A stretch of 64,000 bases of DNA from Escherichia coli 042 (GTDB lineage Bacteria; Pseudomonadota; Gammaproteobacteria; Enterobacterales; Enterobacteriaceae), in the NCBI RefSeq assembly GCF_000027125.1, contig NC_017626.1. One strand, written 5' to 3'. The position numbers and the translations under genes are program-made. Under the pieces are notes generated by a model. The model was not told where the DNA came from. It worked only from the letters and a program-made list of their open reading frames with translations, and did not search any database. Positions 22,010 to 53,583 of this stretch are shown in pieces. Numbering within the stretch: position 1 is the stretch's first letter; each line of letters starts with the position of its first letter.

Positions 22010-22017
22010 GACATTCC

Positions 22018-34189: not shown

Positions 34190-34200
34190 CTGAGGTAATT

Positions 34201-34383: not shown

Positions 34384-35624
34384 TGTTCTTTTCGGGATTA
34401 TTTCAACGAAAAAGTGACGCACCGGTGACCACGCCAGCAGAGCTGGCGGATGCCATCGGGTTGTCCTACGACACCTATACCGGAAAGCAGATCAGCAGCC
34501 AGCGGGCCATGCGACTGACGGCGGTTTTTTCCTGTGTCAGGGTGCTGGCGGAGTCGGTCGGGATGTTGCCCTGCAACCTGTATCACCTGAACGGCAGCCT
34601 GAAGCAGAGAGCCACCGACGAACGTCTGCATAAGCTGATCTCCACGCATCCCAATGGCTATATGACGCCGCAGGAGTTCTGGGAGCTGGTGGTCACCTGT
34701 CTGTGCCTGCGGGGAAACTTTTACGCCTACAAAGTGAAAGCATTTGGCGAAGTGGCTGAACTGCTGCCCGTCGATCCCGGCTGTGTGGTACCGAAGCTTA
34801 ACAGTAGCTGGGAGCCGGTCTATCAGGTCACATTCCCGGATGGCTCCACGGATGTACTGAGCCAGGAGGATATCTGGCATGTGCGCACGCTGACGCTGGA
34901 CGGTCTGGTGGGACTGAATCCCGTCGCCTATGCCCGTGAGGCAATATCGCTGGCAGCTGCGACCGAAGAGCACGGGGCCAGACTGTTCAGCAATGGCGCG
35001 GTGACGTCGGGTGTGTTGCGTACAGAACAGACGCTGTCGGATCAGGCTTATGAGCGCCTGAAGAAAGATTTTGAGGAGCGTCACACCGGGCTTGGTAATG
35101 CTCACCGCCCGATGATCCTTGAGATGGGGCTGGACTGGAAGTCGATGGCGCTGAACGCCGAGGACAGCCAGTTCCTGGAAACCCGCAAGTTTCAGCTTGA
35201 AGAAATCTGTCGTCTGTTCCGGGTGCCGTTGCACATGGTGCAGAACACCGATCGCGCCACCTTCAACAATATCGAAGAGCTGGGGCTGGGATTTATCAAC
35301 TATTCACTGGTGCCGTATCTGACCCGCATCGAACAGCGGATCAACACCGGACTGGTACGAAAAAGTAAGCAGGGCGTTTATTACGCCAAATTTAACGCCG
35401 GGGCGTTACTGCGCGGGGATATGAAGTCCCGTTTTGAAGCCTACGCCACCGGGATCAACTGGGGAATTTACTCTCCCAATGACTGCCGCGATCTGGAAGA
35501 TATGAATCCGCGTCCCGGTGGTGATGTCTATCTCACACCGATGAACATGACCACGAAACCCTCCGATGGCAGTAAAGCCGGTAAGCAGAAGGATAACGCC
35601 AATGCAGACGAAACAACGTCTTGA
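34383..35624 (+). CDS. Portal protein (HK97 family)
   Basis: 413 aa in terminase-portal-protease-capsid order. Confidence 0.85.
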   Translation: MFFSGLFQRKSDAPVTTPAELADAIGLSYDTYTGKQISSQRAMRLTAVFSCVRVLAESVGMLPCNLYHLNGSLKQRATDERLHKLISTHPNGYMTPQEFWELVVTCLCLRGNFYAYKVKAFGEVAELLPVDPGCVVPKLNSSWEPVYQVTFPDGSTDVLSQEDIWHVRTLTLDGLVGLNPVAYAREAISLAAATEEHGARLFSNGAVTSGVLRTEQTLSDQAYERLKKDFEERHTGLGNAHRPMILEMGLDWKSMALNAEDSQFLETRKFQLEEICRLFRVPLHMVQNTDRATFNNIEELGLGFINYSLVPYLTRIEQRINTGLVRKSKQGVYYAKFNAGALLRGDMKSRFEAYATGINWGIYSPNDCRDLEDMNPRPGGDVYLTPMNMTTKPSDGSKAGKQKDNANADETTS

Positions 35625-36252
35625 TGTACCGCTGAGTCTGAAGTCTGTCAGTGACTCCGGTGAGTTTGAAGGGTATGGCTCCGTCTTTGGTGTAAAGGAC
35701 AGCCACGATGATGTGGTGATGTCCGGGGCATTTGCCGCCTCCCTGCGGGCGTGGAGTGACAGAAAAGCGTTACCTGCGCTGCTCTGGCAGCACCGCATGG
35801 ATGAGCCCATCGGTGTTTACACCGAAATGAAGGAAGACGATGTCGGGCTTTACGTCAGGGGGCGGTTGCTCATTGATGATGATCCCCTGGCAAAACGCGC
35901 ACATGCACACATGAAGGCCGGTTCGTTAACCGGCCTTTCTATTGGGTACGTCCTGAAAGACTGGGAATACGACCGGACGAAAGAAGCCTTTCTGCTAAAA
36001 GAAATCGACCTCTGGGAAGTCAGTCTGGTGACGTTCCCGTCTAACGACGAGGCACGGATCAGCGACGTCAAGAACGCGCTGGCCCGCGGGGAAATCCCCG
36101 AACAGAAAAAAATCGAAAGAGTCCTGCGTGATGTCGGACTCTCCCGTACCCAGGCCAAAGCATTCATGGCCGGGGGCTATAGCGCACTGTCCCTGCGCGA
36201 CGCTGAGGATGTGAGCTCTGCACTGAATGCACTGAAAAATCTGAACTTCTAA
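35602..36252 (+). CDS. Prohead protease (HK97 family)
   Basis: Trimmed to Met after RBS AAGGATAA; between portal and capsid. Confidence 0.8.
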   Translation: MQTKQRLDVPLSLKSVSDSGEFEGYGSVFGVKDSHDDVVMSGAFAASLRAWSDRKALPALLWQHRMDEPIGVYTEMKEDDVGLYVRGRLLIDDDPLAKRAHAHMKAGSLTGLSIGYVLKDWEYDRTKEAFLLKEIDLWEVSLVTFPSNDEARISDVKNALARGEIPEQKKIERVLRDVGLSRTQAKAFMAGGYSALSLRDAEDVSSALNALKNLNF

Positions 36253-36266
36253 TCAGGAGAAATACG

Positions 36267-37472
36267 ATGGCGGTAGATATTAAAGATGTCGAACAGGTCG
36301 CGCAGGAGCTGCAGCAGAAGTTTGACGACTTCAAAGCAAAGAACGACAAGCGCGTGGAGGCGATTGAGCAGGAAAAAGGCAAACTTGCCGGGCAGGTGGA
36401 AACCCTGAACGGAAAACTCAGCGAGCTGGAAAATCTCAAAAGCGACCTTGAAAAAGAGCTGCTTGAGCTGAAACGTCCGGCAGGTGGTGCGCAAAATAAA
36501 CTGGCCACCGAGCATAAAGAGGCGTTTGTGGGTTTTCTGCGTAAAGGCCGTGAAGACGGTCTGCGCGATCTGGAGCGTAAGGCATTGCAGGTGGGCACCG
36601 ATGAAGACGGTGGCTACGCCGTGCCGGAAGAACTGGATCGCAACATTCTCAACCTGCTGAAAGATGAAGTGGTGATGCGTCAGGAAGCCACGGTGATCAC
36701 CGTTGGCGGTTCCGACTACAAAAAACTGGTGAATCTGGGCGGTACGGCTTCCGGATGGGTGGGGGAAACGGATACGCGATCCCAGACTGCCACCTCCAGA
36801 CTGGAGCTGATTGAACCTCTCATGGGGGAAATCTACGGTAACCCGCAGGCCACCCAGAAAATGCTGGACGATGCCTTTTTCAACGTGGAGGCCTGGATCA
36901 ACAGCGAGCTGGCAACCGAATTTGCCGAACAGGAAGAAATTGCCTTTACCTCCGGCGATGGCACCAAGAAGCCAAAAGGGTTCCTGGCGTATGAATCCAC
37001 CGATGAAACCGATAAGGTCCGGGCGTTCGGCAAACTTCAGCATATTGTATCCGGCGAAGCGACGGCGGTGACCGCAGACGCCATTATCAAACTGATTTAC
37101 ACGCTGCGTAAGGCACACCGCACTGGCGCGAAATTCATGATGAACAACAACAGCCTGTTTGCCATCCGTCTGCTGAAAGACAGCGAGGGTAACTATCTGT
37201 GGCGTCCGGGGCTGGAACTGGGGCAGCCGTCCTCTCTGGCGGGTTACGGTATCGCTGAAAACGAACAGATGCCGGATATCGCCGCTGATGCGAAAGCCAT
37301 TGCATTTGGTAACTTCAAACGGGGTTACACCATCGTTGACCGTATCGGCACCCGCATTCTGCGTGACCCGTACACCAATAAACCGTTTGTCGGTTTTTAT
37401 ACCACCAAGCGCACCGGCGGGATGCTGGTCGATTCGCAGGCCATCAAACTGCTGAAGATTGCAGCGGCGTAA
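36267..37472 (+). CDS. Major capsid protein (HK97 fold) with N-terminal delta domain
   Basis: 401 aa; N-terminal coiled coil then capsid domain. Confidence 0.88.
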   Translation: MAVDIKDVEQVAQELQQKFDDFKAKNDKRVEAIEQEKGKLAGQVETLNGKLSELENLKSDLEKELLELKRPAGGAQNKLATEHKEAFVGFLRKGREDGLRDLERKALQVGTDEDGGYAVPEELDRNILNLLKDEVVMRQEATVITVGGSDYKKLVNLGGTASGWVGETDTRSQTATSRLELIEPLMGEIYGNPQATQKMLDDAFFNVEAWINSELATEFAEQEEIAFTSGDGTKKPKGFLAYESTDETDKVRAFGKLQHIVSGEATAVTADAIIKLIYTLRKAHRTGAKFMMNNNSLFAIRLLKDSEGNYLWRPGLELGQPSSLAGYGIAENEQMPDIAADAKAIAFGNFKRGYTIVDRIGTRILRDPYTNKPFVGFYTTKRTGGMLVDSQAIKLLKIAAA

Positions 37473-37521
37473 TCACTCAGGGGCGCGGAACCGCGCCCCC
37501 TGTTCTGACGGGTGAAGAATC

Positions 37522-37722
37522 ATGATCCTGAAACAAGATCTGAAATGGTCACCGGACGGTATGCGTGTTGAGGTCATTCGGGCCGGTGAGTATGACGACG
37601 GGGCGCTTCCTGCCCGGGTGCAGGAGATTGCACTTCAGGCCGGGTTAGCAGAGCGCGGAACCAGTGCAAAAAGCAGTAAAGCGACAAAAGAGAAAAAAGC
37701 CACGACCAGTAAAGAGGGCTGA
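37522..37722 (+). CDS. Hypothetical small head-region protein
   Basis: 66-aa ORF with Lys/Ser-rich tail. Confidence 0.35.
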   Translation: MILKQDLKWSPDGMRVEVIRAGEYDDGALPARVQEIALQAGLAERGTSAKSSKATKEKKATTSKEG

Positions 37723-37724
37723 GT

Positions 37725-38048
37725 ATGCTTCTGACAATGGAAGAGATTAAAGCCCAACTCCGGCTGGATGAGGATTTTGATGCTGATGACCGCCATCTGC
37801 AACTGCTGGCCTGTGCGGCGCAAAAGCGGACGGAAACGTATCTGAACCGGAAGCTCTATGCACCGGATGAAACCATTCCGGACAGCGATCCGGACGGGCT
37901 GCACCTGCCGGATGATATTCGTCTGGGGATGCTGATGCTTATCAGCCATTTTTACGAAAACCGCTCGTCGGTTACGGAAGTGGAGAAACTCGACATGCCG
38001 CAGAGTTTTGGCTGGCTTGTCGGCCCGTACAGGTACTTTCCGCAATGA
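37725..38048 (+). CDS. Head-tail connector (gp6-like)
   Basis: 107 aa; position after capsid. Confidence 0.65.
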   Translation: MLLTMEEIKAQLRLDEDFDADDRHLQLLACAAQKRTETYLNRKLYAPDETIPDSDPDGLHLPDDIRLGMLMLISHFYENRSSVTEVEKLDMPQSFGWLVGPYRYFPQ

Positions 38049-38455
38049 AAATTCGTCAGGCGCAGACCAGCGCAACCTACATTCTGCCGGACCCCGGTGA
38101 ACTGAATAAACGCGTCCTGATCCGCCAGCGGGTGGATATGCCCGCGGATAACTTTGGCGTGGAGCATCAATACCCGGTTACGTTCCGGACATGGGCGAAG
38201 GTTATCCAGACCAGTGCCACCACCTGGCAGGAAACCGCGCAGACTGGAGACGCCATCACCCATTACATCACCATTCGCTACCGCCGGGGGATCACCGCTG
38301 ATTATGAGGTGGTCTGCGGTGACAGTGTGTACCGGGTGAAACGTCAGCGCGATCTGAACGGGGCGCGGCGCTTTCTGCTGCTGGAGTGTACGGAACTGGG
38401 CGAATTTACGCAGAGTCACGGAGGCAGCAATGGCGACTCCCTTTTTTCACGTTGA
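38045..38455 (+). CDS. Head closure / head-tail adaptor protein
   Basis: 136 aa, overlapping neighbours in head-tail joining block. Confidence 0.55.
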   Translation: MKIRQAQTSATYILPDPGELNKRVLIRQRVDMPADNFGVEHQYPVTFRTWAKVIQTSATTWQETAQTGDAITHYITIRYRRGITADYEVVCGDSVYRVKRQRDLNGARRFLLLECTELGEFTQSHGGSNGDSLFSR

Positions 38456-38936
38456 TGTTCAGCAGCCCGCGGAGATGCGCTTTAACCGCGCCCGTGTCCG
38501 GCGGGCGTTTGTCACGATTGGGCAGCGTCATATGCGTGATGCCCGTCGGCTGGTGATGCGCCGTGCGCGGTCGGCACCGGGTGAAAATCCCGGTTATCAG
38601 ACCGGACGTCTGGCTCGTTCGATTGGTTACATGGTGCCGAGAGCCAGTAAAAAGCGAGCCGGTTTTATGACACGCATTGCCCCTAACCAGCGCAACGGGA
38701 AGGGGAACCGGATGATCTCTGGTGACTTCTATCCGACGTTTCTGTTTTTTGGTGTCCGGGGAGGAGCAAAACGTCGTCGTAGCCATCATCGTGGTGCATC
38801 CGGTGGCAGCGGCTGGCGGCTGGCTCCACGTAATAACTTTATGGTGGAAACTCTTGAAAAGAACCGCAGCTGGACACGCTATTTTCTGGCGCGGGAATTG
38901 CGTAAATCACTGAAGTCGGAGCGACGACGCAGATGA
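38430..38936 (+). CDS. Head-tail joining protein
   Basis: 168-aa basic protein in neck gene block. Confidence 0.5.
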   Translation: MATPFFHVDVQQPAEMRFNRARVRRAFVTIGQRHMRDARRLVMRRARSAPGENPGYQTGRLARSIGYMVPRASKKRAGFMTRIAPNQRNGKGNRMISGDFYPTFLFFGVRGGAKRRRSHHRGASGGSGWRLAPRNNFMVETLEKNRSWTRYFLARELRKSLKSERRRR

Positions 38937-39493
38937 AACTGACGCCTGTTATTGCTGCGCTGCGTGCCCGCTGCCCGTATTTTGAAAACCGGGTGGCAGG
39001 CGCGGCACAGTTCAAAAATCTGCCGGAGGTCGGAAAGCTGAGACTCCCGGCGGCGTATGTGGTACCGGGTGATGACTCTCCGGGAGAAAACAAAAGCCAG
39101 ACCGACTACTGGCAGGAGCTGAAAGAGGGCTTCTCCGTGGTTGTCATACTGAGTAACGGGCGTGATGAGCGCGGTCAGTTTGCTTCGTATGATGTGGTGG
39201 ACGATGTCCGGCAGATGCTCTTTAAGGCCCTGCTGGGCTGGACCCCGGAAGCGTGCGGTAACCCGATTACCTATGACGGCGGCACGCTGCTGGATCTGAA
39301 TCGTCATGAGCTGATTTATCAGTTCGATTTTTCGGTCATCAGCGAGCTGACCGAAGACGATACCCGCCAGCAGGATGAGCTGAACAGTCTGGATGAACTG
39401 CGAACGCTGGCGATTGATGTTGATTATTTCGATCCCGGTAACGGGCCTGACGGCGATATCGAACATCACACCGAAATAACCCTTCCTTCCTGA
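38933..39493 (+). CDS. Tail completion / neck protein
   Basis: 186-aa ORF immediately upstream of sheath gene. Confidence 0.5.
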   Translation: MKLTPVIAALRARCPYFENRVAGAAQFKNLPEVGKLRLPAAYVVPGDDSPGENKSQTDYWQELKEGFSVVVILSNGRDERGQFASYDVVDDVRQMLFKALLGWTPEACGNPITYDGGTLLDLNRHELIYQFDFSVISELTEDDTRQQDELNSLDELRTLAIDVDYFDPGNGPDGDIEHHTEITLPS

Positions 39494-39501
39494 GAATCTT
39501 C

Positions 39502-39672
39502 ATGTTTGTGAAACCTGTTAAAGGGCGGTCAGTGCCTGACCCTGCCCGCGGTGACCTTTTGCCCACCGAAGGGCGAAATGTTGACGAGAACAACTACTGG
39601 CTGCGCCGTGAAGCAGCGGGTGATATCCGGCGCGTGAATAAAAAGGTGAACACCGATGACGACAAGCTTTAA
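39502..39672 (+). CDS. Small hypothetical protein overlapping sheath start
   Basis: 56 codons from ATG 39502 to TAA 39670-39672; below track cutoff. Confidence 0.3.
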   Translation: MFVKPVKGRSVPDPARGDLLPTEGRNVDENNYWLRREAAGDIRRVNKKVNTDDDKL

Positions 39673-41152
39673 CACCATTCCGTCGAATACGCTGGTTCCG
39701 CTGTTTTATGCGGAAATGGATAACCAGGCGGCGAATACTGCACAGGACAGCGGGGCATCGTTGCTGATTGGTCACGCCAATAACGGTGCAGAGATTGTTG
39801 CCAACAGTCTGGTGCTGATGCCGTCGGCAGACTATGCACGCCAGATTTGTGGTGCGGGAAGTCAGCTGGCGCGTATGGTTGAGGCTTATCGCCAGACCGA
39901 CCCGTTTGGTGAGCTGTATGTGATTGCCGTTCCTGAATCCACGGGCGCGGCGGCAACAGTTACGCTGACGGTGACCGGGGCGGCAACCGAAACCGGCACG
40001 GTGAATGTTTATGTGGGACGTACCCGCGTGCAGGCACCGGTGACCAACGGCGATAACGTCGCGACCATTGCCAGCAGTATCCAGGATGCCATCAATGCCG
40101 TTCCGACTCTGCCGTTTACAGCTTCATCTTCGGCTGGTGTGGTCACGCTGACCGCGCGTCATAAGGGGCTTTGCGGGAATGAAATTCCTGTCAGCCTCAA
40201 TTACTACGGCTTCGGTGGGGGCGAAGTGCTGCCAGCGGGCGTACAGATTGCCGTGGCGACGGGGACCGCCGGAACGGGCGCTCCGGTTCTCACCGGCGCG
40301 GTGGCTGCAATGGCGGATGAGCCGTTTGATTATATCGGCCTGCCGTTCAACGACACGGCCTCCGTTAACACGCTGGTGACCGAGATGAACGATACCAGCG
40401 GTCGCTGGAGCTATGCGCGTCAGCTGTATGGTCATGTGTATACGGCAAAGACCGGTACGCTGTCAGAACTGGTGACCGCAGGTGACCAGTTTAACCAGCA
40501 GCACATTACCCTGGCGGGGTACGAAAAAGAGACCCAGACGCCTGCCGACGAACTGGCGGCAAGCCGTACCGCCCGCGCAGCGGTGTTTATTCGCAACGAT
40601 CCGGCACGTCCCACGCAGACCGGTGAGCTGGTGGGTATGCTGCCTGCGCCGAAGGGGAAACGGTTCACGATGACCGAACAACAGACCCTGCTGTCTCATG
40701 GCGTGGCAACGGCGTATGTCGAAAGCGGGGTACTGCGCATTCAGCGTGATGTCACCACGTACAGGAAAAACGCTTACGGGGTTGCGGATAACAGCTACCT
40801 AGACAGCGAGACGCTGCATACCAGCGCGTATGTACTGCGCAAACTGAAATCCGTCATTACCAGTAAGTACGGGCGTCACAAGCTTGCCAGCGACGGTACC
40901 CGCTTTGGTCCCGGTCAGGCGATTGTCACACCGGCGGTGATCAAAGGGGAACTGCTGGCAACCTACCGTCAGCTTGAGCGTGCGGGGATCGTGGAAAACT
41001 ACGAACTGTTTAAGCAGTACCTGGTTGTGGAGCGTGATGCCAGCGATCCGAACCGCCTGAACACGCTGTTCCCGCCTGACTATGTTAACCAGTTGCGTGT
41101 CTTTGCCGTGGTTAACCAGTTCCGTCTTCAGTATTCAGAGGAGTCTGCATAA
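39656..41152 (+). CDS. Contractile tail sheath protein (Mu L-like)
   Basis: 498 aa followed by tube, chaperone, tape measure. Confidence 0.85.
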   Translation: MTTSFNTIPSNTLVPLFYAEMDNQAANTAQDSGASLLIGHANNGAEIVANSLVLMPSADYARQICGAGSQLARMVEAYRQTDPFGELYVIAVPESTGAAATVTLTVTGAATETGTVNVYVGRTRVQAPVTNGDNVATIASSIQDAINAVPTLPFTASSSAGVVTLTARHKGLCGNEIPVSLNYYGFGGGEVLPAGVQIAVATGTAGTGAPVLTGAVAAMADEPFDYIGLPFNDTASVNTLVTEMNDTSGRWSYARQLYGHVYTAKTGTLSELVTAGDQFNQQHITLAGYEKETQTPADELAASRTARAAVFIRNDPARPTQTGELVGMLPAPKGKRFTMTEQQTLLSHGVATAYVESGVLRIQRDVTTYRKNAYGVADNSYLDSETLHTSAYVLRKLKSVITSKYGRHKLASDGTRFGPGQAIVTPAVIKGELLATYRQLERAGIVENYELFKQYLVVERDASDPNRLNTLFPPDYVNQLRVFAVVNQFRLQYSEESA

Positions 41153-41508
41153 TGGCCCGTATCGGGGGAACCTGTTATTTCAAAATTGACGGTCAGCAGC
41201 TATCGCTGACCGGCGGCATTGAGGTGCCCATGAACAGGACGGTCAATGATGACATCATCGGCCTGGACGGTTCAGTGGACCGCAAGGAAACTCACCGTGC
41301 GCCTTATGTCAAAGGGACCTTCAAGGTGCCGAAGAATTTTCCGGTGAGCAAAATCACCTCGTCTGATGAGATGACCATCACTGCCGAGCTGGCGAACGGT
41401 CAGGTCTATGTATTGTCGTCAGCCTGGCTGCACGGCGAAGCGAACCATAATGCCGAAGAAGGCACAGTCGATCTTGAGTTCCACGGTGAAGAAGGGGATT
41501 ACCAGTAA
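41152..41508 (+). CDS. Tail tube protein (Mu M-like)
   Basis: 118 aa directly after sheath. Confidence 0.8.
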   Translation: MARIGGTCYFKIDGQQLSLTGGIEVPMNRTVNDDIIGLDGSVDRKETHRAPYVKGTFKVPKNFPVSKITSSDEMTITAELANGQVYVLSSAWLHGEANHNAEEGTVDLEFHGEEGDYQ

Positions 41509-41777
41509 TGAAAGAGCTTGAGTTAAAGAAACCGATTATTGCTCATGGCGAGACACTCTCCGTACTGGAGTTTGATGAACCCACCGGGAAGGATGTCCGC
41601 GAGCTGGGGTATCCCTACCAGATGAATCAGGATGAGTCCGTCAGACTTCTGGCGCATGTGGTGTCGAAATACATTGTGCGGCTGGCGAAAGTGCCGCAAA
41701 GCTCTGTCGACCAGATGTCTCCGGCAGACCTGAATGCAGCGGCGTGGCTTGTGGCTGGTTTTTTCCTCCAGGCCTGA
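41508..41777 (+). CDS. Tail assembly chaperone
   Basis: 89 aa before tape measure; slippery heptamer T_TTT_TTC at 41759-41765. Confidence 0.75.
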   Translation: MKELELKKPIIAHGETLSVLEFDEPTGKDVRELGYPYQMNQDESVRLLAHVVSKYIVRLAKVPQSSVDQMSPADLNAAAWLVAGFFLQA

Positions 41778-41926
41778 CGGCTGAATACCTCACTGATCGC
41801 TTCTTTGACTGCGCCAGCTACTGGCGCATTAATCCCTTCGAATTGCTGAATATGCCGATCAGTGAAATTCCCTTGCTGGTCAGTCAGGCAAACAGGATAG
41901 AGCAGGAGAAACGCACACATGGCTGA
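41744..41926 (+). CDS. Predicted -1 frameshift extension of the tail assembly chaperone
   Basis: -1 frame ORF overlapping the chaperone 3' end and running to 41926, just before tape measure start. Confidence 0.55.
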   Translation: MACGWFFPPGLTAEYLTDRFFDCASYWRINPFELLNMPISEIPLLVSQANRIEQEKRTHG

Positions 41927-43751
41927 ATTTGAGCTTAAGGCGTTGATCACCGGTGTCGACAGGCTTTCTCCCGCGCTGTCGAAAATGCAAAAGAAAATCC
42001 GGGGATTTAAACGCCAGGCGGAAGAAGCGTCACAGGGTGGGCTGGCGCTTGGTGGCGGACTGGCAGCGGGGCTGACGCTTTCCCTGAAATCTTATGCCGA
42101 TCAGGAAAACGCCGCTACCGGGCTGAAAGTCGCCATGATGGATGCGAACGGCGAGGTTGGAAAGCGCTTTCAGGACATCAATAAACTGGCTATTGGCCTG
42201 GGTAACCAGCTACCCGGTACAACGGCTGATTTCCAGAACATGATGCAGATGCTGGTGCGTCAGGGGATCCCGGCAGAAAACATCCTGGGTGGTGTGGGTA
42301 AAGCGACAGCTTATCTTGCGGTACAACTGAAAAAAACACCGGAAGCGGCTGCTGAGTTTGCTGCAAAGATGCAGGATGCTACCGGAACGGCTTCAGAAGA
42401 CATGATGGGGCTGTTCGACACTATCCAGAAGGCGTTTTATCTGGGCGTTGACGATACCAACATGTTGTCCTTCTTCACTAAAACCAGTTCTGTTCTGAAG
42501 ATGGTGAACAAGGACGGTCTTCAGGCTGCACAGAGCCTTGCCCCTATCAGCGTCATGATGGATCAGATGGGGATGAACGGGGAGTCGGCAGGTAATGCCC
42601 TGCGAAAAGTTATCCAGTCCGGATTAAGCGTTAAGAAAATCAGGGACGTCAATAAAGTCATGGCCCGCCAGAAACTCGGGGTACAGCTCGATTTTACTGA
42701 CGGCAAAGGGAGTTTTGGCGGTCTTGATAACATGTTTAAGCAACTGGCAAAGCTGCGAAAACTGACCGACGTTAAGCGAACAGGTGTACTTAAGGCAATA
42801 TTTGGTGATGATGCCGAAACCCTTCAGGTGGTCAATGCTCTGATCGATAAAGGAAAGGATGGTTACGATCAGATCCAGCAGAAGATGAATAAACAGGCCA
42901 GCCTGAATAAACGTGTTCAGGCACAGCTTGGTACGCTGTCCAACCTGTGGGAGGCAATGACGGGGACCGCAACTAACGGTCTTGCAGCTATTGGCGGCGC
43001 ATTTTCTGGTGACGCTAAAAATATCACGCAATGGTTGGGGGCGTTGGGGGAAAAATTCACGAAGTTTGCGGATGAAAATCCCCGGGTTATTCGCGGCGTC
43101 GTCGGGCTTGCTGCCGGTCTTGCGATTCTGAAACTGGGATTGATGGGCGTTGGCGGTGCCATCAGTATTGTCAGCAGGATCATGTCGATGACGCCGATTG
43201 GCATGATTGCGACGGCGATAGCCCTGGCTGCGGGATTAATTATCACTAACTGGGATGTTGTCGGACCTTATTTTAAGAAACTCTGGGAAACCATTGGTCC
43301 TTATTTTGAGGCTGGCTGGGAACTCCTAAAGAAAGTTTTTGCCTGGTCGCCGCTGGGGATGGTGATCAATAACTGGGGACCGGTTGTTAAGTGGTTTCAG
43401 GATATGTGGGACAAGCTGAAGCCAATTATTGAGTGGTTTACCGACAGTTCCGGTGACACGGTCGATGCCATTAACTCTGCGCAGTGGGGCGCGGGTGCTT
43501 ATGATGCTTATGGGACGGGAATACCGGCGCGGGGATACACACCTTATCCGGCGGTGGATCCGGCTCAGTCAAACAACGCCTCCGATGCCACAGGCCCGAA
43601 TCCCTTCATGATTAACAAAGCTTCTGCGCCAAAAGTTGATGGCGAGATCAAGGTTTCATTTATGAATATGCCACCAGGTATGCGGGTTACGGAAACACGT
43701 TCCAGTGGCATTGATATTAATCACGATGTTGGGTACACCAGATTTAGGTAA
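41919..43751 (+). CDS. Tail tape measure protein
   Basis: 610 aa, Ala/Gly-rich helical with TM-like segments. Confidence 0.88.
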   Translation: MAEFELKALITGVDRLSPALSKMQKKIRGFKRQAEEASQGGLALGGGLAAGLTLSLKSYADQENAATGLKVAMMDANGEVGKRFQDINKLAIGLGNQLPGTTADFQNMMQMLVRQGIPAENILGGVGKATAYLAVQLKKTPEAAAEFAAKMQDATGTASEDMMGLFDTIQKAFYLGVDDTNMLSFFTKTSSVLKMVNKDGLQAAQSLAPISVMMDQMGMNGESAGNALRKVIQSGLSVKKIRDVNKVMARQKLGVQLDFTDGKGSFGGLDNMFKQLAKLRKLTDVKRTGVLKAIFGDDAETLQVVNALIDKGKDGYDQIQQKMNKQASLNKRVQAQLGTLSNLWEAMTGTATNGLAAIGGAFSGDAKNITQWLGALGEKFTKFADENPRVIRGVVGLAAGLAILKLGLMGVGGAISIVSRIMSMTPIGMIATAIALAAGLIITNWDVVGPYFKKLWETIGPYFEAGWELLKKVFAWSPLGMVINNWGPVVKWFQDMWDKLKPIIEWFTDSSGDTVDAINSAQWGAGAYDAYGTGIPARGYTPYPAVDPAQSNNASDATGPNPFMINKASAPKVDGEIKVSFMNMPPGMRVTETRSSGIDINHDVGYTRFR

Positions 43752-43781
43752 AGACGAACAGGGAGGGCCGCCCTCCCTGAA

Positions 43782-44193
43782 CTTACTGTGCGAACACGCA
43801 ATTTCGGCCTGATGGGGAGCCGACAATTCTGGACATTTTTTCGCAAATAACAGTTACTTGTTCTCCTTTTTTAAGAGCAGCAGCTGTTGATTTTTCAGAG
43901 TCTTGCATCTCCATTCTTGCTGGCATGAATTCATTTTCAGTTCTGAATTTAATAATTATAGAGTCAGTAAAGTCCTTATCAATGGATTGTACGATACCTC
44001 TAACGGCGATTAATTTACCTTTTAACTGTTCATCGGTAGCGACTTCATTTTCTTCATACTCTTTAAACAGCTGTCGAGCAGTAGTGTTGTAGATTTCTTT
44101 TTGCGGTGCCGCAGCTTCCGTATCGGATGAGTATGAAGAATTAGAGCCTTTATCGTTACCAGTAAATATTACTACTGATAATAAATATGGGAC
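43782..44193 (-). pseudogene. Decayed OB-fold-like gene (no start codon, one frameshift) in an AT-rich island
   Basis: Minus-strand reading frame split between two frames around an A-run near 43980; no ATG/GTG/TTG in the upstream part. Confidence 0.4.
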
Positions 44194-44197
44194 TTAT

Positions 44198-45523
44198 ATG
44201 ACGTGGAAAGACAGACTTCAGGACGCGTCATTTCGCGGCGTGCCGTTTAAGGTTGAAGAAGAAAGTGCGGGAACCGGTCGCCGTGTGGAAACACATGAAT
44301 ACCCGAACCGCGACAAACCCTATACCGAAGACCTGGGGAAAATCACTTTTCGCCCGTCCATCACGGCTTATGTGGTGGGAGATGACTGCTTTGACCAGCG
44401 CGATCGCCTGATTGACGCGCTGAATAAACCCGGTCCCGGCACGCTTGTCCATCCGACATACGGTGAGCTGAAAGTCTGTGTTGACGGAGAAGTTCGGGTC
44501 AGCACATCGAAGAGTGAAGGGCGTATTGTCCGCTTTGACCTGAAGTTTGTCGAAGCGGGAGAACTCTCTTACCCCACTTCAGGTGCGGCGACGGCGCAGA
44601 CGCTGATGTCATCCTGTTCTGCACTGGATGACTGCATCAGTGACAGCTTCAGAGGTTTCAGTATCGATGGCGTGGCGGATTTCGTGCAGAACGACGTCGT
44701 CGGTAATGTCAGCACAATGCTTGGGTATGTTTCTGATGCGATGAAAGTGGTGGATTCTGCCGTATCGGATGCTGCCAGGCTGTTGCAGGGGGATATCTCG
44801 GTACTTCTGCCGCCACCATCGTCAGGCAAAAATCTCGTTGAGCAGGTGCAGAAAATGTGGCGTACCGGGAAACGCCTTTATGGTAACGCCAGCGACCTGG
44901 TCACCATGATCAAAACGCTTTCCGGTGTCAGCCTCGGCAGCGATCTGCAACCGCGCGGCGTCTGGAAAACGGACAGTAAAACCACCGCCACGGCTACGCA
45001 GCAGCGTAACGTGGTTGCCAGCACCCTTCGTACGACCGCAATCAGCGAAGCGGCGTATGCCGTCACCCGATTGCCTGCGCCAACAACTTCCGCGGTGATG
45101 CAGAATGCCGCAGTGGGGCAGGCAACAACACCTGCGCAGAGCACTGGCTGGCCTTCCGTCACGCATCCGGCACTGAACAATGCACCGACGGTGAAAAACA
45201 CAGTTGACCTGCCGACGTGGGAAGAACTGACTGACATTCGCGACACACTGAATACGGCAATTGATAAGGAGTTGTCCCGTACAACCAGTGATGCGCTGTT
45301 TCTGGCGCTGCGCCGGGTGAAAGCAGATCTGAATGCGGATATCAACACGCGCCTTGAACAGTCTGCACGGATCATTCAGCGCACGCCGGATGAGGTTTTA
45401 CCCGCGCTGGTGCTGGCGGCGACCTGGTTTGATAACGCGGCGCGTGACGCGGACATTATCCGGCGTAATGCCATTACGCATCCCGGATTTGTGCCGGTGA
45501 TCCCTCTGAAGGTGCCAGTGTAA
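44198..45523 (+). CDS. Mu N-like DNA circularisation/tail protein
   Basis: 441 aa; N-terminus WKDRLQDASFRGVPFKVEE...HEYPNRDKPY; position after tape measure. Confidence 0.75.
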   Translation: MTWKDRLQDASFRGVPFKVEEESAGTGRRVETHEYPNRDKPYTEDLGKITFRPSITAYVVGDDCFDQRDRLIDALNKPGPGTLVHPTYGELKVCVDGEVRVSTSKSEGRIVRFDLKFVEAGELSYPTSGAATAQTLMSSCSALDDCISDSFRGFSIDGVADFVQNDVVGNVSTMLGYVSDAMKVVDSAVSDAARLLQGDISVLLPPPSSGKNLVEQVQKMWRTGKRLYGNASDLVTMIKTLSGVSLGSDLQPRGVWKTDSKTTATATQQRNVVASTLRTTAISEAAYAVTRLPAPTTSAVMQNAAVGQATTPAQSTGWPSVTHPALNNAPTVKNTVDLPTWEELTDIRDTLNTAIDKELSRTTSDALFLALRRVKADLNADINTRLEQSARIIQRTPDEVLPALVLAATWFDNAARDADIIRRNAITHPGFVPVIPLKVPV

Positions 45524-46602
45524 TGAACGATAACGTCACGCTACGGGTAAATGGCCGGGAGTGGAATGGCTGGACATCGGTGCGCATCGGTGCCGGTGTT
45601 GAACGACTGGCGCGGGATTTCAGTGTGGAGATCACTCGCCAGTGGCCGGGAGATGAGGGTATCACCACGCTTCAGCCGCGCATTAAAAACGGTTCAAAAG
45701 TGGAAGTGCTGATTGGTGATGAGCTGGTGATCACCGGCTGGGTGGAGGCGACTCCCGTTCGTTACGATGCCCGTTCGGTCAGCACCGGTATTGCCGGACG
45801 TAGTCTGACGGCTGACCTGATTGACTGTGCAGCCGAACCGACACAGTTTAACGGACGCTCGCTGGTGCAGATTGCGCAGGCGCTTGCTGCGCCTTTCGGC
45901 ATTGAGGTGGTGAACAGCGGTGCGCCGTCGGGTGTTATTCCTGATGTTCAGCCTGATCACGGTGAAACGGTGATTGAGGTAATCAACAAAATACTCGGTC
46001 AGCAGCAGGCGCTGGCTTATGACGACCCGCACGGCAGGCTGGTGATTGGTGGTATTGGCTCAACGCGGGCACATACCGCGCTGGTACTCGGGGAAAACAT
46101 CCTTTCCTGCGATACGGAGAAGAGTATCCGGGAGCGGTTTTCTGTTTACCAGGTGGCGGGGCAGCGTGCCGGAAACGACGATGATTTCGGTGAGGCCACC
46201 ACCACCGCGCTGCGGGCCCGCACAGAGGACGCATTTATTGCCCGTTACCGTCCGATGTATATCAGGCAGACAGGACAGGCTACGGGGGCTGGCTGTATTG
46301 CCCGTGCGGACTTTGAAGCCCGACAACGGGCGGCGCGGACGGATGAAACCACCTATGTGGTGCAGGGCTGGCGACAGGGTAACGGTACGCTGTGGCAGCC
46401 CAACCAGCGGGTGATTGTCTTTGATCCGGTCTGTGGTTTCGACAACACCGAACTGCTTGTTTCGGAAGTCACGTTTACTCAGGACCAGAACGGCACCCTG
46501 ACGGAAATCCGTGTCGGCCCACCAGATGCTTATCTGCCTGAACCCGAAGCCCCCGGCGCGCGGAAAAAGAAAAAAGCCAGAGTACAGGAGGACCCGTTCT
46601 GA
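45523..46602 (+). CDS. Baseplate hub protein (Mu P-like)
   Basis: 359 aa in Mu-like baseplate gene order. Confidence 0.7.
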   Translation: MNDNVTLRVNGREWNGWTSVRIGAGVERLARDFSVEITRQWPGDEGITTLQPRIKNGSKVEVLIGDELVITGWVEATPVRYDARSVSTGIAGRSLTADLIDCAAEPTQFNGRSLVQIAQALAAPFGIEVVNSGAPSGVIPDVQPDHGETVIEVINKILGQQQALAYDDPHGRLVIGGIGSTRAHTALVLGENILSCDTEKSIRERFSVYQVAGQRAGNDDDFGEATTTALRARTEDAFIARYRPMYIRQTGQATGAGCIARADFEARQRAARTDETTYVVQGWRQGNGTLWQPNQRVIVFDPVCGFDNTELLVSEVTFTQDQNGTLTEIRVGPPDAYLPEPEAPGARKKKKARVQEDPF

Positions 46603-47150
46603 TGAGGACGATTGAAGCCATGCAGCGACAACTCCTCGGCCTGATTGGGCGGGCCGTGGTGAAAAGCATCAGTGCCGCCACGAAATGTCAGACCGTGGAT
46701 GTGTCCCTGATTGCCGGTGAACCCAAAGCCGGGGTTGAACATCTTGAACCCTACGGTTTTACTGCAAGGGCAAACATCGGTGCGGAAGCGGTGGTGTTGT
46801 TTCCGGATGGCGACCGTTCTCATGCGGTGGTTGTTACGGTGTCGGACCGTCGCTACCGCCTGAAAGGGCTGCAGACGGGGGAGGTGGCTGTCTATGACGA
46901 TCAGGGGCAGTCCGTGACGCTGACCCGGGAGGGGATTGTGGTGGACGGTGCAGGTAAAACGATCACGTTTCGCAATGCACCTGAAGCACGTTTTGAAATG
47001 GACCTGGAAGTGACAGGACAGGTGAAAGACCTGTGCGACTCCGGCGGCACCACCATGTCAGCGATGCGGCTTGCCTATAACGGGCATCGTCACAGAGAGA
47101 ACGGTCAGGGCAGTAACACCGACAAACCTGATAAATCGATGGAGGCATGA
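46602..47150 (+). CDS. Baseplate spike/assembly protein V-like
   Basis: 182 aa. Confidence 0.7.
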   Translation: MRTIEAMQRQLLGLIGRAVVKSISAATKCQTVDVSLIAGEPKAGVEHLEPYGFTARANIGAEAVVLFPDGDRSHAVVVTVSDRRYRLKGLQTGEVAVYDDQGQSVTLTREGIVVDGAGKTITFRNAPEARFEMDLEVTGQVKDLCDSGGTTMSAMRLAYNGHRHRENGQGSNTDKPDKSMEA

Positions 47151-47575
47151 TGGAACTGTGGCTGACGGTGAACGGTAAACGCACCTGCGCCAGCGCACCG
47201 CTGGATCCGCTGACCCGCGCCGTGGTGATTTCCCTGTTTACCTGGCGGCGGGCGGAGCCTGATGACAATGCCGACGTCCCGATGGGATGGTGGGGGGATA
47301 CCTGGCCTGAGGTACAGAATGACCGTTACGGCTCCCGACTGTGGCTGCTTCAGCGCAGCAAACTGACCAATCAACTGGTGCAGACGGTAAGGGGGTATAT
47401 CCGCGAATGCCTGCAATGGATGATTGATGACGGCGTGGTGTCCCGTATTGATCTGGATATCCGCCGCACCGGGATTAATGAACTGGGTAACAGTATCACT
47501 CTCTGGCGTCGTGACGGACCGGTAATGATTTCTTTTGATGATCTGTGGAGTGCGATAACGCATGGCGGACAGTGA
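47147..47575 (+). CDS. Baseplate protein (Mu gp46 / W-like)
   Basis: 142 aa. Confidence 0.65.
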   Translation: MMELWLTVNGKRTCASAPLDPLTRAVVISLFTWRRAEPDDNADVPMGWWGDTWPEVQNDRYGSRLWLLQRSKLTNQLVQTVRGYIRECLQWMIDDGVVSRIDLDIRRTGINELGNSITLWRRDGPVMISFDDLWSAITHGGQ

Positions 47576-48620
47576 ATTTCAGCGCCCGACGCTGGCAGAA
47601 AATATCAGTATGCTCCGTAACGATTTATTCGCCAGGCTGGACGTCAGCGACACGCTCCGGCGCATGGATGAAGACGTGCGGGCAAAGGTGTATGCGGCGG
47701 CGCTGCATACGGTTTACGGGTACATCGATTATCTGGCAATGAACATGCTGCCTGACCTGTGCGATGAGTCCTGGCTGGCGCGACATGCTGCGATGAAACG
47801 GTGTCCGCGCAAGGGGGCCACGGCTGCCAGCGGGTATATGCGCTGGGAAGGTGTCAGCGATGGCCTGAAGGTGACCGCCGGAAGTGTTATTCAGCGCGAT
47901 GACCTGGTTCAGTACACGGCAACTGCCGATGCAACCAGCACCGGTGGTGTCCTGCGCGTGCCGATCGCCTGCTCAAGTGCAGGCGCGGTCGGTAACGCTG
48001 ACGACGGTACGTCATTAATCCTGGTCACGCCGGTTAATGGTCTGCCGTCTTCCGGCGAGGCAGATACCCTGACAGGTGGATTTGATACTGAAGAGCTGGA
48101 AACGTGGCGCGCCCGCGTCATTGAGCGGTATTACTGGACGCCTCAGGGCGGGGCTGACGGGGACTATGTCGTCTGGGCTAAAGAAGTGCCCGGCATTACC
48201 CGCGCATGGACATACCGACACTGGATGGGAACGGGGACTGTCGGTGTGATGATTGCCAGCAGTGACCTGATTAACCCCATTCCGGAAGAATCAACGGAAA
48301 CGGCGGCAAGACAACATATCGAGCCACTGGCCCCGGTGGCAGGCTCTGATTTGTATGTATTCAGGCCGGTGGCGCACAAAGTGGATTTTCATATCCGCGT
48401 GACGCCGGACACACCGGAAATACGGGCTGCCATCACCGCGGAGTTGCGTTCATTCCTGCTGCGTGATGGTTATCCGCAGGGAGAGCTTAAGGTATCGCGT
48501 ATCAGTGAAGCGATTTCCGGTGCGAACGGGGAATACAGCCATCAGTTGCTTGCTCCGGCGGACAATATCTCCATTGCAAAAAATGAACTGGCGGTTCTGG
48601 GGACGATTTCATGGACGTGA
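47562..48620 (+). CDS. Baseplate J-like protein
   Basis: 352 aa. Confidence 0.75.
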
Positions 48621-49195
48621 CAAACGATGATTACATCCGTCTGTTGTCGGCACTGTTGCCCCCTGGTCCGGCGTGGTCAGCCAGCGATCCGGCGATTGCC
48701 GGTGCGGCACCGTCATTAACCCGTGCTCATCAGCGTGCGGATGCCCTGATGCGGGAGCTGGATCCGCGCACCACCACCGAACTGATAAACCGCTGGGAGC
48801 GTCTGTGCGGCCTGCCGGATGAATGTATTCCGGCAGGGACGCAGACCCTTCGCCAGCGTCAGCAACGGCTGGATGCGAAGGTTAACCTGGCGGGTGGCAT
48901 CAATGAGGATTTTTACCTTGCGCAGCTTGCTGCCCTGGGCAGACCAGATGCCACCATCACGCGATACGACAAAAGCACGTTCACCTGCTCATCGGCCTGT
49001 ACTGACGCGGTGAATGCGCCGGAATGGCGGTATTACTGGCAGGTCAATATGCCAGCTGCCACCAACACCACCTGGATGACATGTGGCGATCCCTGTGATT
49101 CCGCACTGCGTATCTGGGGGGACACCGTTGTCGAGTGCGTGCTTAACAAACTCTGCCCGTCGCATACCTACGTAATTTTTAAATATCCGGAGTAA
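48611..49195 (+). CDS. Tail protein (Mu gp48 / P2 I-like)
   Basis: 194 aa. Confidence 0.65.
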
Positions 49196-49198
49196 TTC

Positions 49199-50131
49199 AT
49201 GCATCGTATAGACACGAAAACCGCGCAGAAGGATAAGTTCGGCGCGGGTAAGAACGGTTTTACCCGTGGTAACCCCCAGACCGGCACGCCTGCCACCGAT
49301 CTGGATGATGACTACTTTGACATGTTGCAGGAGGAGCTTTGCAGCGTGGTGGAGGCATCCGGTGCCAGCCTGGAGAAGGGGCGGCATGACCAGTTGCTTA
49401 CAGCGCTTCGTGAGCTGCTGTTAAGCCGCAAGAATCCGTTTGGCGATATCAAATCGGATGGCACGGTGAAAACGGCTCTCGAAAACCTTGGTTTGGGAGA
49501 TGGCTCGGGGCGTTACAGCAAAACTGTCGTTTTTTCATCGTCGGGTTCATATACGTGGCCAGCTGACGTAAAACGAATTGACGTTATTCTGACTGCGGCG
49601 GGCGGCGGTGGCGGTGGATGTAACGCGGAGAACGCAAATCAGACATTTTCAGGGGCTGGCGGAGGAGCCGGAGGTACTGTTTTTGCCACTATTTATGCGA
49701 CAGACAACGATGCCGGGCCAGGAACCTATACAGTGACAATTGGCAGCGGTGGTAGTGGTGCCAATGGGGCAGGGTCTGGAAATAATGGCGGTAATAGTTC
49801 GTTCATGACATTAACTGCGCTCGGCGGCCAGGGTGGGCAATGGGGCGGCGCTACAAATACCGCTGGCGGGCGCGGTGGCTCAGGCTCTGGCGGTTATAAA
49901 ACTGAACAAGGCGGAGACGGTTCAGACGGACAGGCGGGCCAGGCGCTATTAGTAGGCAATGGGGCATCGAGCTATTGGGGTGGCGGCGGCCGCGCTGGGC
50001 AACTGAGCGGTAATCCTGGAGTTTGCTCTGGCTCCGGCGGCGGGGGTGCATACGATAATAGCTATTCACACACGTCAGGACGTGGCGGGCACGGAGCTAA
50101 TGGCGTGCTGGTAATTCGGGAGTACATGTAA
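49199..50131 (+). CDS. Tail fiber protein with glycine-rich C-terminal domain
   Basis: 310 aa; conserved N-terminal region then Gly-rich low-complexity C-terminus. Confidence 0.8.
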
Positions 50132-50536
50132 ATGAATGATGTTTATGCAGTTGTTGATAATAACGTTGTTATTAATGTCATTATCTGGGACGGAATTTCT
50201 GAATGGAAACCAGAGGCTGGTAATTTAGTTCCGTTAAACGGCGATGCTGGCATCGGTTGGTCATATTCAGACGGAGTATTTACCGCGCCACCTCCCCCAG
50301 AACGCTCTCACAACGCGTTAGTTGCGGAGGCTGAGCTGCAGAAATCAGCACTACTGACCGTAGCAAATAACGCAATAGCACCGCTGCAGGATGCCGTTGA
50401 TTTGGAAATGGCGACAGACGATGAACAGACGTTACTGCTGGCGTGGAAAAAATACAGGGTACTGCTGAACCGTGTTGATACCTCAGCGGCACCCGAAATA
50501 GAGTGGCCTACGCAACCGGGGGAGCGGGCCAGTTGA
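50132..50536 (+). CDS. Tail fiber assembly chaperone (Tfa)
   Basis: 134 aa with Tfa C-terminal motif [28 protein letters not shown]. Confidence 0.8.
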
Positions 50537-50657
50537 TATCAGGCGCAGGGGCAGCATCAACTGCTGTCACTGCGTCGATGTAGTCGAGTACCGCATTCAG
50601 CCGCCTTTTTTCATCATCAGTCAGTTTGCGGCCTACACCTCTCCGTTGACATCTTTG
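50511..50657 (-). pseudogene. Relic of a second, inverted tail-fiber-assembly gene (C-terminal 49 codons, no start)
   Basis: Minus-strand open frame ...[39 protein letters not shown] mirrors the Tfa C-terminal motif; overlaps tfa 3' end convergently. Confidence 0.45.
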
Positions 50658-50834
50658 TTATATGGTACAACTGCGCAGAGGCCTGTCTCTCCAACTGTGC
50701 CAGTTGAATACTACGATACAACGCTCGGCCTTCCTATTTGGTGGAACATAACCACATCCACATGGAAAAGAGCTGATGGTGCAGATGTATAATTCTGGTG
50801 CCGCGCATGCGGCACCAATAAAAAACATATTAAA

Positions 50835-52310
50835 CTAAAGTGAATCTATTCCATTTTTCCAAATAAGAACTTTTTTGTCTTGTATTTTATGAGTGCTATC
50901 AGGCTGCCCAAACTGTTTTATGGCCTTTTCCTCTTGCTCTACATCATCAGCAATTAAAAAATTAGCTCCTTTTTGGTACCATTCTTTTTTTGATAACCAA
51001 TTATATGGTGTGAATCTATCACCATACGACTCAAATGGAGCTACGTTGATATCACTAAATCCAGCAACAGATGATGCAAACCAAAATGATGCATAACCTC
51101 TTTGTAGTTTATTTTTTATTAAGAAATCTCTTAATTCTATTGTAATATCATTTTTATTAACAATGTTTTTTGTTGTTGCCATCGTTGGCAACGATAACGC
51201 AATAACGATTAATGATATTAGTAAATTTGTCTTCACTGGTAAGGAGAAAGAATTTCTAGCAATCACAATTGACATGAAAATAAATGTTGGGACTATGTAT
51301 CTAATTGAGAAAAGATTTGTTGGCCTGTCACTTGAAACATAGGCAATCAACATGACTAATGATGATACAATAAGAACCTGGTCAATAAAATCAATTTCTT
51401 TAAATTTAAGAATGTTTTTATAAGATAAAAATAAGAATACAAAAATGAAAAACACCTTTATCATGGTGAATAATGAGTTAAAGCTACCTATCTCCATTCC
51501 AAACGCGTACCCACCAAAAAATTTGAATACGCCCATGATAACAAGAGATATGTTGCTTGTTATTTGTTGAAACTCTACTATGTGAGGTTTGGTTATGCCT
51601 GGCAGGTTAAATCCACCAAGCTTAATGAATATAAATGATATGATCTCAGCAATAAATATAGATGATATAGTGAAAACCAACAATAACAAATCATTAGTAT
51701 TCAACGAATCTCTTTTCATTAGAGAAGCATACATTCTATATATGCAAACAAAAACTATAGGTATTATAAAGGCATATTTAGATATATCATCACTAAAAAC
51801 AAGCAACGATAACATAAATACATATGGAAAAAGTAATTTTAAATCATTTTTCTTTCTGTATCTATCTATTATTAGTATGATCGCCAGCATGTAAATGTAC
51901 GCACCAATATGTATACATGCTATAAGCATTATACTTGATGAGAAAACCGTTGGAATTCCAAATACAGAAAGAACAGGCCATAACGATGCCCTACTTTTAG
52001 TATGAGAGATATATAGCGATAGTGTTACTAATATAGACATGAAAACTCCAGGCACAATATAGTACAGATTTTCATTAAATCCTATTATTTTTATCGCTAT
52101 AGCATATGGTATTATTTCTGTGAAATAGAATGATACAGTTGATAAATCCCACCCACTGAGAAAAATATTTCCTTCAGTAATATCCCTTGCCTCTCTGAAT
52201 GAAGACATGACATCTGAGTTTGGAATTATGTTTTTAGCAATCATTGAGTAAATTATTGATAATACAATAAATGTTGCCAGCCAATATAAAAGCTCAAGCT
52301 TCTTGCTCAT
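50835..52310 (-). CDS. Serotype-specific O-antigen glucosyltransferase (GtrC-type)
   Basis: 491-aa polytopic membrane protein, strongly AT-rich, downstream of gtrA-gtrB in same operon. Confidence 0.75.
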
Positions 52311-53224
52311 TTTTTACCCTTAAGTACATACTTTGGACGCTGCTTAACTTCAATGTAAATTCTACCAATATACTCACCGAGCACTCCAATCCCAATTAAC
52401 TGGATGCCGCCAAGAAATAATATTGATACAAGAATTGAAGGGTATCCAGGTACATTATTACCAAAAATTAATTTATCAATTATCATCCATGAACCGTATG
52501 TAAATGATATACATGCAATAAATAACCCAATATAGGTCCACATGCGAAGCGGGAATGTTGAGAAGCTAGTGATCCCTTCCAGCGCCAAGTTCCATAGCTT
52601 CCATCCATTGAACTTTGTGCTTCCTGCAACGCGTTCTGCTCGCGCATATTCTACGACATCGGTTCGACCACCAACCCAGCTCAGCACACCCTTCATAAAC
52701 AGGTTTCGTTCTGGCATGAGCTTAATATTTTCTACTACTTCGCGAGACATGAGCCGGAAGTCGCCAACATTCTCTTCTATCTGAGGGTTGCTGATTTTGT
52801 TATGAAGTTTATAGAACCACTCAGCAGATTTACGCTTCAGCCTGCTGTCAGTGGAGCGGTCAGAGCGTTTAGCCAGAACCATATCTGCACCGGCCTGCCA
52901 TTTCTCTATCAAGTGAGGAATAACTTCGATAGGGTCTTGCAGATCAACGTCAATCGGGATAATTGCCTCCCCGGTAGCATGGTCCAGACCTGCGAACAGG
53001 GCGGGTTCTTTGCCGAAGTTACGTGTGAACGACAGCGAAACCACAAGCGGGTCGGCAACAGCGAGCTCGTTGATAATTGATTCTGTAGCGTCTTTGCTGC
53101 CATCGTTTATGAAGACTATCTCGACTTCATGCTGCTGAAGCCCTTCAAATTCGCGCACAGTTTTATAAAAAATAGGTATCGTGGCCTCTTCGTTAAAGAC
53201 CGGAACGACTAAAGAAATTTTCAT
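52307..53224 (-). CDS. gtrB: Bactoprenol glucosyltransferase GtrB
   Basis: 305 aa; GT2 N-terminal domain ([13 protein letters not shown]...DGSKD) plus C-terminal TM helices. Confidence 0.9.
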
Positions 53225-53583
53225 TTCGCATCCCTAAAGACAATGAACTTTGAATAGACGAAACCGCACACCAGGCTGATGGCGGAGAAGGTGACAAGAG
53301 TTATCATCGGGGGAAGTGCGCATCTATCAGCAGCCCATCCAACAGTAGCACTGAGTGTTCCCATGAACCCGACATATAACATGTAGCGCATCGTTGTAGT
53401 TGATGCTTTGAATGTGAATTTTGCATTCGCGAAGAAGCTAAAACTCACAGCCACAACGAAACCTGCGAAGTTTGCCAGAGCCTGATTGGTATGCGCGGCA
53501 TAGATACATACACCAAAAACCACCCAGTGTATAAGTGTGTTCAGCACACCAATCGAGGTGTACCTTGCAAATATATTTAACAT
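53221..53583 (-). CDS. gtrA: GtrA flippase-like small membrane protein
   Basis: 120 aa, four TM segments, first gene of gtr operon. Confidence 0.88.

Follow-up and report, generated by a model that had tools for sequence, protein, structure and literature searches.

The AT-rich DNA between the tape-measure and Mu N-like genes of a prophage in Escherichia coli 042 is, with a probability that we put at about 0.9, the 5′-truncated remnant of a prophage moron. We found it in a 64,000-nucleotide stretch of contig NC_017626.1 (RefSeq assembly GCF_000027125.1), here called the window. In the history that we propose, the ancestral cassette would have been an AT-rich insert of 581 bp, lying opposite to the tail genes in an SfV-like prophage with a Mu-type tail beside ybhB-bioA. 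A single 142-bp deletion between TTA microhomologies has taken away ~69 nt of upstream sequence, the ribosome-binding site, the ATG and the first 24 codons, and with them all of the membrane anchor. The remaining 124 codons still form an open frame, left with no canonical start, Shine–Dalgarno site or export signal, and judged from its sequence the gene is most likely dead.

The gap between the tail genes and its reading frame

The gap extends over 446 bp, from the stop of the tape-measure gene at 43751 to the start of the N-like gene at 44198. Both neighbours lie on the plus strand and are identified from the ORF list and from RefSeq annotation, in the case of the first that of identical DNA: on the left the gene for a tail tape-measure protein of 610 aa (41919–43751), and on the right that for a Mu N-like DNA circularization (tail) protein of 441 aa (44198–45523). 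The GC content of the gap is 0.355–0.37, against 0.52–0.58 in the flanks, and the ORF list holds no frame in the gap that has a canonical start and exceeds 56 codons, much as the original prediction had it in describing an AT-rich gap of ~450 bp without an intact ORF. A search for known RNAs in the gap returned MALAT1 as its sole match, at 31.5 bits against a gathering score of 70; being sub-threshold, it was rejected as chance. On the far side of the tape-measure gene, an 89-aa tail assembly ORF (41508–41777) is overlapped in another frame by a 60-aa ORF (41744–41926) that ends at the tape-measure start, the layout usual for a programmed-frameshift pair of tail chaperones.

Six-frame translation gives, on the minus strand, a single continuous frame of 136 sense codons that runs from 44193 to a TAA at 43785–43783. 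Its full translation is VPYLLSVVIFTGNDKGSNSSYSSDTEAAAPQKEIYNTTARQLFKEYEENEVATDEQLKGKLIAVRGIVQSIDKDFTDSIIIKFRTENEFMPARMEMQDSEKSTAAALKKGEQVTVICEKMSRIVGSPSGRNCVFAQ, and the stretch LKGKLIAVRGIVQSIDKDFTDSIIIKF within it reads in one frame with no break. No ATG, GTG or TTG occurs in this frame upstream of the ATG at 43926 (codon 90), which is the first canonical in-frame start, so that the earlier description of the gene as startless holds. The ATG at 43926 opens an ORF of 47 codons and has no Shine–Dalgarno motif ahead of it. One σ70-like site was found in the promoter scan, where 1.2 were expected from shuffled sequences. It has the form TTGATA-16-TATAAT (11/12), lies inside the relic on the minus strand at 43955–43982, and in DNA so rich in AT is probably due to chance.

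Loss of the 5′ end relative to the intact allele

The intact cassette of E. coli strain STEC388 encodes a 148-aa protein that begins MKKLLKWILYIFIGLVIIGYFAGNNDKGS and has the sequence MKKLLKWILYIFIGLVIIGYFAGNNDKGSNSS...CVFAK. Pairwise alignment of the window with STEC388 shows one clean 142-bp gap in the window and a single substitution over the 521 aligned window bases. Missing from the window are the ATG and the first 24 codons, which include the transmembrane anchor, together with the ribosome-binding site AAGGTGA and a further ~69 nt upstream. Alignment and extraction of the deleted segment place the junction, at which 142 bp are missing with respect to the intact alleles, at 44156–44158; the two end-points share TTA, and the loss looks like a microhomology-mediated deletion. 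Apart from this gap the relic is collinear with the intact allele and carries no frameshift. Compared with the intact orthologues it has lost the start codon and the N-terminal codons, and is most probably a pseudogene by 5′ truncation.

Because the upstream DNA, the ATG and codons 1–24 are deleted, the true coding sequence is limited to 44157–43783 on the minus strand, that is, codons 25–148 of the ancestral 148-codon OB-fold gene followed by the TAA. The assignment is based on the alignment to the STEC388 allele and the single open frame, together with the domain match and predicted fold given below. The 12 codons that lead the open frame (44193–44158, minus strand; VPYLLSVVIFTG) are former non-coding DNA, open in frame by chance; in the intact allele they lie at least 69 nt upstream of the ATG. 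With the ribosome-binding site, start codon and anchor gone, the product of the relic should not be made, or should at best be a mislocalised fragment. The view that the gene is non-functional for lack of a start is thus supported, and its cause can be named as the 142-bp deletion at the 5′ end.

Upstream of the OB gene, the intact allele contains a perfect inverted repeat of 8 nt (TGGTAATG/CATTACCA; locus L002, 2369–2376 and 2397–2404) whose arms are 20 nt apart, and the right end-point of the deletion falls within its second arm. The repeat could be an operator, a hairpin that favoured deletion, or chance.

Protein family, fold and layout

The relic matches the Pfam family PF12869 (tRNA_anti-like) with an i-Evalue of 8.2e-17 over model positions 23–131 of 146, and the domain is present in all of the homologues listed but one (P0090). 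Structure prediction with AF2, using 16 aligned sequences, gave a β-barrel with helices at a mean pLDDT of 83.9, with values above 93 over residues 30–136. The best solved structure found by Foldseek was 3f1z, which comes from structural genomics, followed by the OB domains of class IIb (Asp-, Asn- and Lys-) tRNA synthetases. The resemblance to an OB-fold protein that had been noticed from the sequence is thus confirmed by profile, model and structure search alike. The intact protein also matches PHROG 8545, “superinfection exclusion Sie-like”, with E = 1.5e-49, its residues 1–146 aligning with positions 14–176 of the 177 in the profile. This label is an annotation, and a literature search on “Sie-like” found nothing relevant. 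The PADLOC defence-system models gave no match and NCBIfam no significant one.

The intact protein consists of a positive N-terminus (MKKLLK), a hydrophobic helix (WILYIFIGLVIIGYFAG), a Ser/Thr-rich linker and a C-terminal OB domain. Its homologues are laid out in the same order, with MKKxLKW, a hydrophobic helix, a variable Ser/Thr-rich linker and a conserved domain that contains two invariant cysteines. The intact allele and 15 aligned homologues all have an N-terminal anchor before the OB domain; in the window this anchor is deleted. Neither a lipobox cysteine nor an obvious signal-peptidase site is found in the intact protein. Its positive N-terminus and single helix predict an N-in signal anchor that would hold the OB domain on the periplasmic face of the inner membrane. 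A location there would agree with the invariant cysteine pair, between which a disulfide may form.

Anchored OB-fold proteins of PF12869, such as the “putative nucleic acid-binding lipoprotein” 3f1z of Klebsiella pneumoniae, have the same fold and the same anchor–linker–OB layout as the intact allele, whereas the window copy is without anchor and start. Unlike 3f1z, the intact E. coli protein is not a lipoprotein: its anchor is a transmembrane helix, and a lipobox cysteine is absent. The comparison with PHROG 8545 is similar, in that the intact allele matches nearly end to end and the window copy is truncated. A search for functional literature on PF12869 or tRNA_anti-like proteins in phages found none, yielding a mention in Klebsiella comparative genomics and a paper on TcdC. 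TcdC of Clostridium difficile is membrane-anchored, and profile comparison relates its C-terminal domain to PF12869 (PMC3575817). It is a remote relative only, a regulator of toxin expression and not a phage moron.

The cassette as a moron and its insertion site

In its deleted form the AT-rich cassette occupies 439 bp (43755–44193), compared with 581 bp when intact. Its limits are set by the break in homology to phages SfII and SKA5 and by the contrast in GC; the homology ends at ~43750–43754 (at 43754 for SfII) and resumes at 44194. The tape-measure and N-like genes of SfI, SfII and SfV are near-identical (96.6–97.3%), and the spacer there is only ~60 bp and contains a hairpin. At this junction SKA5 carries instead an unrelated AT-rich ORF of 170 aa on the forward strand (L005, 1153–1836). 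In an intact IMG/VR locus (L016) the gene has a GC content of 0.37, against 0.54 in the flanks. The cassette is thus a moron in the sense of Juhala and Hendrix, being extra DNA between adjacent genes, with deviant base composition and a terminator of its own. Of the earlier phrase “decaying moron”, the noun stands, given the empty junction in SfI, SfII and SfV; the adjective does not, as the only lesion is the 142-bp loss at the 5′ end and the difference is otherwise 1 nt.

The terminator was found by a terminator scan on the minus strand at 43759–43779, where a hairpin with a 9-bp GC-rich stem (CAGGGAGGG/CCCTCCCTG) is followed by the T-run TTCGTCTTTA; it would terminate the moron transcript. 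On the plus strand the scan found no T-run after the hairpin, so that late tail transcription could read through it in that direction. Upstream of the intact ATG there is no σ70 promoter scoring 9/12 or more, the best reaching 8/12, and in the window part of this upstream DNA is deleted. Independent transcription of the intact moron gene is therefore no more than plausible.

A diverged version of the cassette occurs at the same position. In one IMG/VR locus (L035) the tail genes are 97% identical and the OB cassette 73% identical in DNA, and three others (L032–L034) have a similarly diverged OB allele. The OB-fold cassette is therefore known in two alleles, with ~72% protein identity, within tail modules that are 97% identical. 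The junction of the tape-measure and N-like genes in SfV-like tails (43752–44197 in the window; occupied by a hairpin only in SfI, SfII and SfV) is a cassette hot spot.

Distribution and age of the two alleles

A query of 1.2 kb around the gap was compared with the complete E. coli genome records. Matches through the flanking tail genes were found in 1,100 records, and 68 spanned the whole query. Fifteen of the latter align collinearly with the window at 99.9–100% identity, and the remainder have 142–143 extra bases. The intact cassette is present at full length in about 54 complete E. coli genomes, and the original prediction was right to suppose that a start-bearing, correctly framed version might exist in relatives. 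Two further E. coli records, NZ_CP086338.1 and NZ_CP086336.1, match the 5′ two-thirds of the cassette only and are annotated “OB-fold putative lipoprotein”; they may represent a recombinant allele that differs in its C-terminus or in its surroundings.

Eight of the 15 records with the deleted junction are from the DG34x chicken isolates (four strains, each deposited twice), and the other seven are F374, SCU-482, SCU-105, GN05505, PCP06238, SW070912 and MZ1211. The isolates come from chicken, human, seawater and wastewater, and were sequenced by different groups. The deleted allele is found in at least three prophage mosaics, namely the window, the DG341-1/F374 type and the SCU-482 type, which have the structural module in common, differ in their early and lysis regions, and are all integrated beside ybhB-bioA. 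Across the 446-bp gap the window is 1 nt from the intact STEC388 allele and SCU-482 is 2 nt from it. As only 1 nt separates the remnant from the intact allele, the alignments date the loss as recent: on this measure the deletion is evolutionarily young and has been followed by no further decay.

Alternative explanations and the RefSeq annotation

The polarity of the change follows from comparison with other genera. Homologues of about 135–167 aa and 43–73% identity are found in Buttiauxella, Scandinavium, Pantoea, Serratia, Erwinia and other genera, and because they share the N-terminus of MKKxLKW plus helix, the long (148-aa) form is by this comparison the ancestral one. If instead the short form were ancestral, the 142 bp would be an insertion that elsewhere created a start by chance. 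The formal symmetry of an indel allows this and nothing more speaks for it; the 142 bp hold 24 codons for an N-terminus that is conserved in the homologues of 43–73% identity from those genera, and the PHROG 8545 profile spans the N-terminus of the intact protein as well. Insertion in place of deletion is ruled out by this conservation, and we give it practically no weight. No more credible is that the 142 bp are missing through a sequencing or assembly artefact of one genome; the original prediction had raised assembly error with respect to the A-run. The region is AT-rich with short repeats, and in the intact allele the right end-point lies within the 8-nt inverted repeat, but an identical junction is shared by 15 complete-genome records, which come from various laboratories and sources, and by two IMG/VR contigs (L030 and L031), and this excludes an assembly error. 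The original prediction had also taken the gene for a frameshifted pseudogene, split between two frames at an A-run near 43980. There is no A-run at that place, the frame passes 43980 uninterrupted, the sequence around it is identical to that of the intact allele, and the “(D)” that had been inserted to rejoin the two frames is an ordinary in-frame GAT codon. No point in support of a frameshift came from any of the analyses, and it can be set aside with near certainty.

The remaining alternative is that the relic is a working shortened gene, as the databases would have it. RefSeq (PGAP) annotates the identical DNA as a CDS and not as a pseudogene, with a 128-aa “OB-fold protein” (WP_071821387.1) that starts at an ATA at 44169–44167 on the minus strand. 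A second RefSeq record, WP_071593209.1, likewise presents the relic as an intact 128-aa OB-fold protein. A protein started at this ATA, or at another rare start, would be a cytoplasmic OB-fold protein, and besides the PGAP call one may cite for it the frame still open over 136 codons and the persistence of the allele in several strains and prophage mosaics. An open frame is, however, to be expected when only 1 nt has changed since the deletion. In the intact allele the DNA that holds this ATA is non-coding and lies upstream of the gene, no Shine–Dalgarno motif is present in the 20 nt before it, the N-terminal anchor conserved in all full-length homologues is lost, and the two invariant cysteines suggest a periplasmic fold. 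We therefore regard a working short gene as improbable. Since its start lies in former upstream non-coding DNA with no Shine–Dalgarno motif, the 128-aa PGAP model is probably a mis-annotation of a pseudogene, propagated over the records that carry the deleted allele.

Genomic context and putative function of the intact protein

A relative of the intact protein is encoded at 73 IMG/VR loci, 20 of them of the E. coli type, between N-like and tape-measure genes. A CI-like repressor is found within 2.5 kb in 28 of the other 53; for 26 of the 28 it precedes the OB gene and has the same orientation. The spacing in the Pantoea-like group is close: nine of its ten loci have 14–31 nt between the end of the repressor and the OB gene, and one has 170 nt. 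The repressors of the repressor-linked OB loci (within L036–L086) belong to at least four or five types, and the linkage is therefore not that of one lineage. This arrangement suggests that the OB-fold homologue is co-transcribed with the immunity repressor. In Burkholderia phage Carl1 (L012, 2544–4312) the order is repressor, ORF, OB gene and terminator, converging on the tail genes, and in a Klebsiella phage a zinc-ribbon-plus-OB version forms a reverse-strand insert among the baseplate genes. The rexAB genes after cI are exclusion/conversion genes behind a prophage repressor. Because both the repressor-linked positions and those of inserts in tail modules are typical of exclusion/conversion genes, the intact protein is likely to be an envelope protein expressed in the lysogen. 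Some of the Pantoea homologues have chromosomal neighbourhoods that are not obviously prophage, and a role of the OB-fold protein in host physiology is possible.

Superinfection exclusion is the leading candidate for a specific function of the intact protein. It is proposed by analogy with HK97 gp15 and with Ltp, and we hold it tentatively, at somewhat short of even odds. The protein would be made in the lysogen, act at the cell envelope and block the entry of incoming phage DNA or tail. The HK97 gp15 moron is reportedly treated in the work of Cumby et al. in 2012. The gp15 protein is membrane-inserted and expressed from the prophage, it blocks genome entry of superinfecting phages, and its gene is a moron next to the tape-measure gene (PMC3594210). 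Like the E. coli cassette, its gene is an insert of deviant GC content in the tail operon beside the tape-measure gene and specifies a small membrane protein; the gp15 moron has transcription signals of its own. The likeness is functional and positional and does not extend to sequence, as gp15 is a YebO-family protein without an OB fold. The positions too differ in detail, gp15 lying between the chaperone and tape-measure genes, whereas the E. coli cassette lies between the tape-measure and N-like genes and on the opposite strand.

Ltp of Streptococcus thermophilus phage TP-J34 is a surface lipoprotein for superinfection exclusion (PMC3952083). It, too, is an envelope-tethered prophage protein; it differs in having another domain fold and in being a lipoprotein of a Gram-positive. 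The link to the OB-fold proteins consists of one Foldseek hit and its name, a metagenomic phage protein called an Ltp-type “host cell surface-exposed lipoprotein” that contains the OB-fold match. A wider proposition, which we think rather doubtful at present, is that membrane-tethered PF12869 OB-fold proteins are widespread lysogen-expressed exclusion factors, encoded behind the repressor or on the reverse strand in tail modules, and that the E. coli cassette is one of them. If this were true, the window would add only a natural knockout allele of the class.

The wider prophage and significance

The prophage as a whole is, by its pattern of matches, a new mosaic of known modules. No complete E. 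coli genome in the collection has the same early and lysis region (~20000–31480), the best coverage over 25 kb being 77%. The matches are confined to the structural module (31482–50742) and the right flank, at 99.7% identity for DG341-1/F374 and 98.6% for SCU-482. At the right prophage end is a gtrC-gtrB-gtrA-like O-antigen glucosylation operon (491, 305 and 120 aa; 50835–53583 on the minus strand, and 54032–54508), which adjoins ybhB-bioA, the lambda attachment region. The gtrC allele is closer to that of SCU-482 than to that of DG341-1/F374.

The relic itself is an ordinary inactivated prophage accessory gene, and both its family (PF12869, PHROG 8545) and its locus are already in public databases. 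The RefSeq start at an ATA in former non-coding DNA is a probable annotation error that is repeated across the records carrying the allele. The intact and deleted alleles constitute a natural isogenic pair in near-identical tail modules, which could be used to probe the putative role in exclusion.
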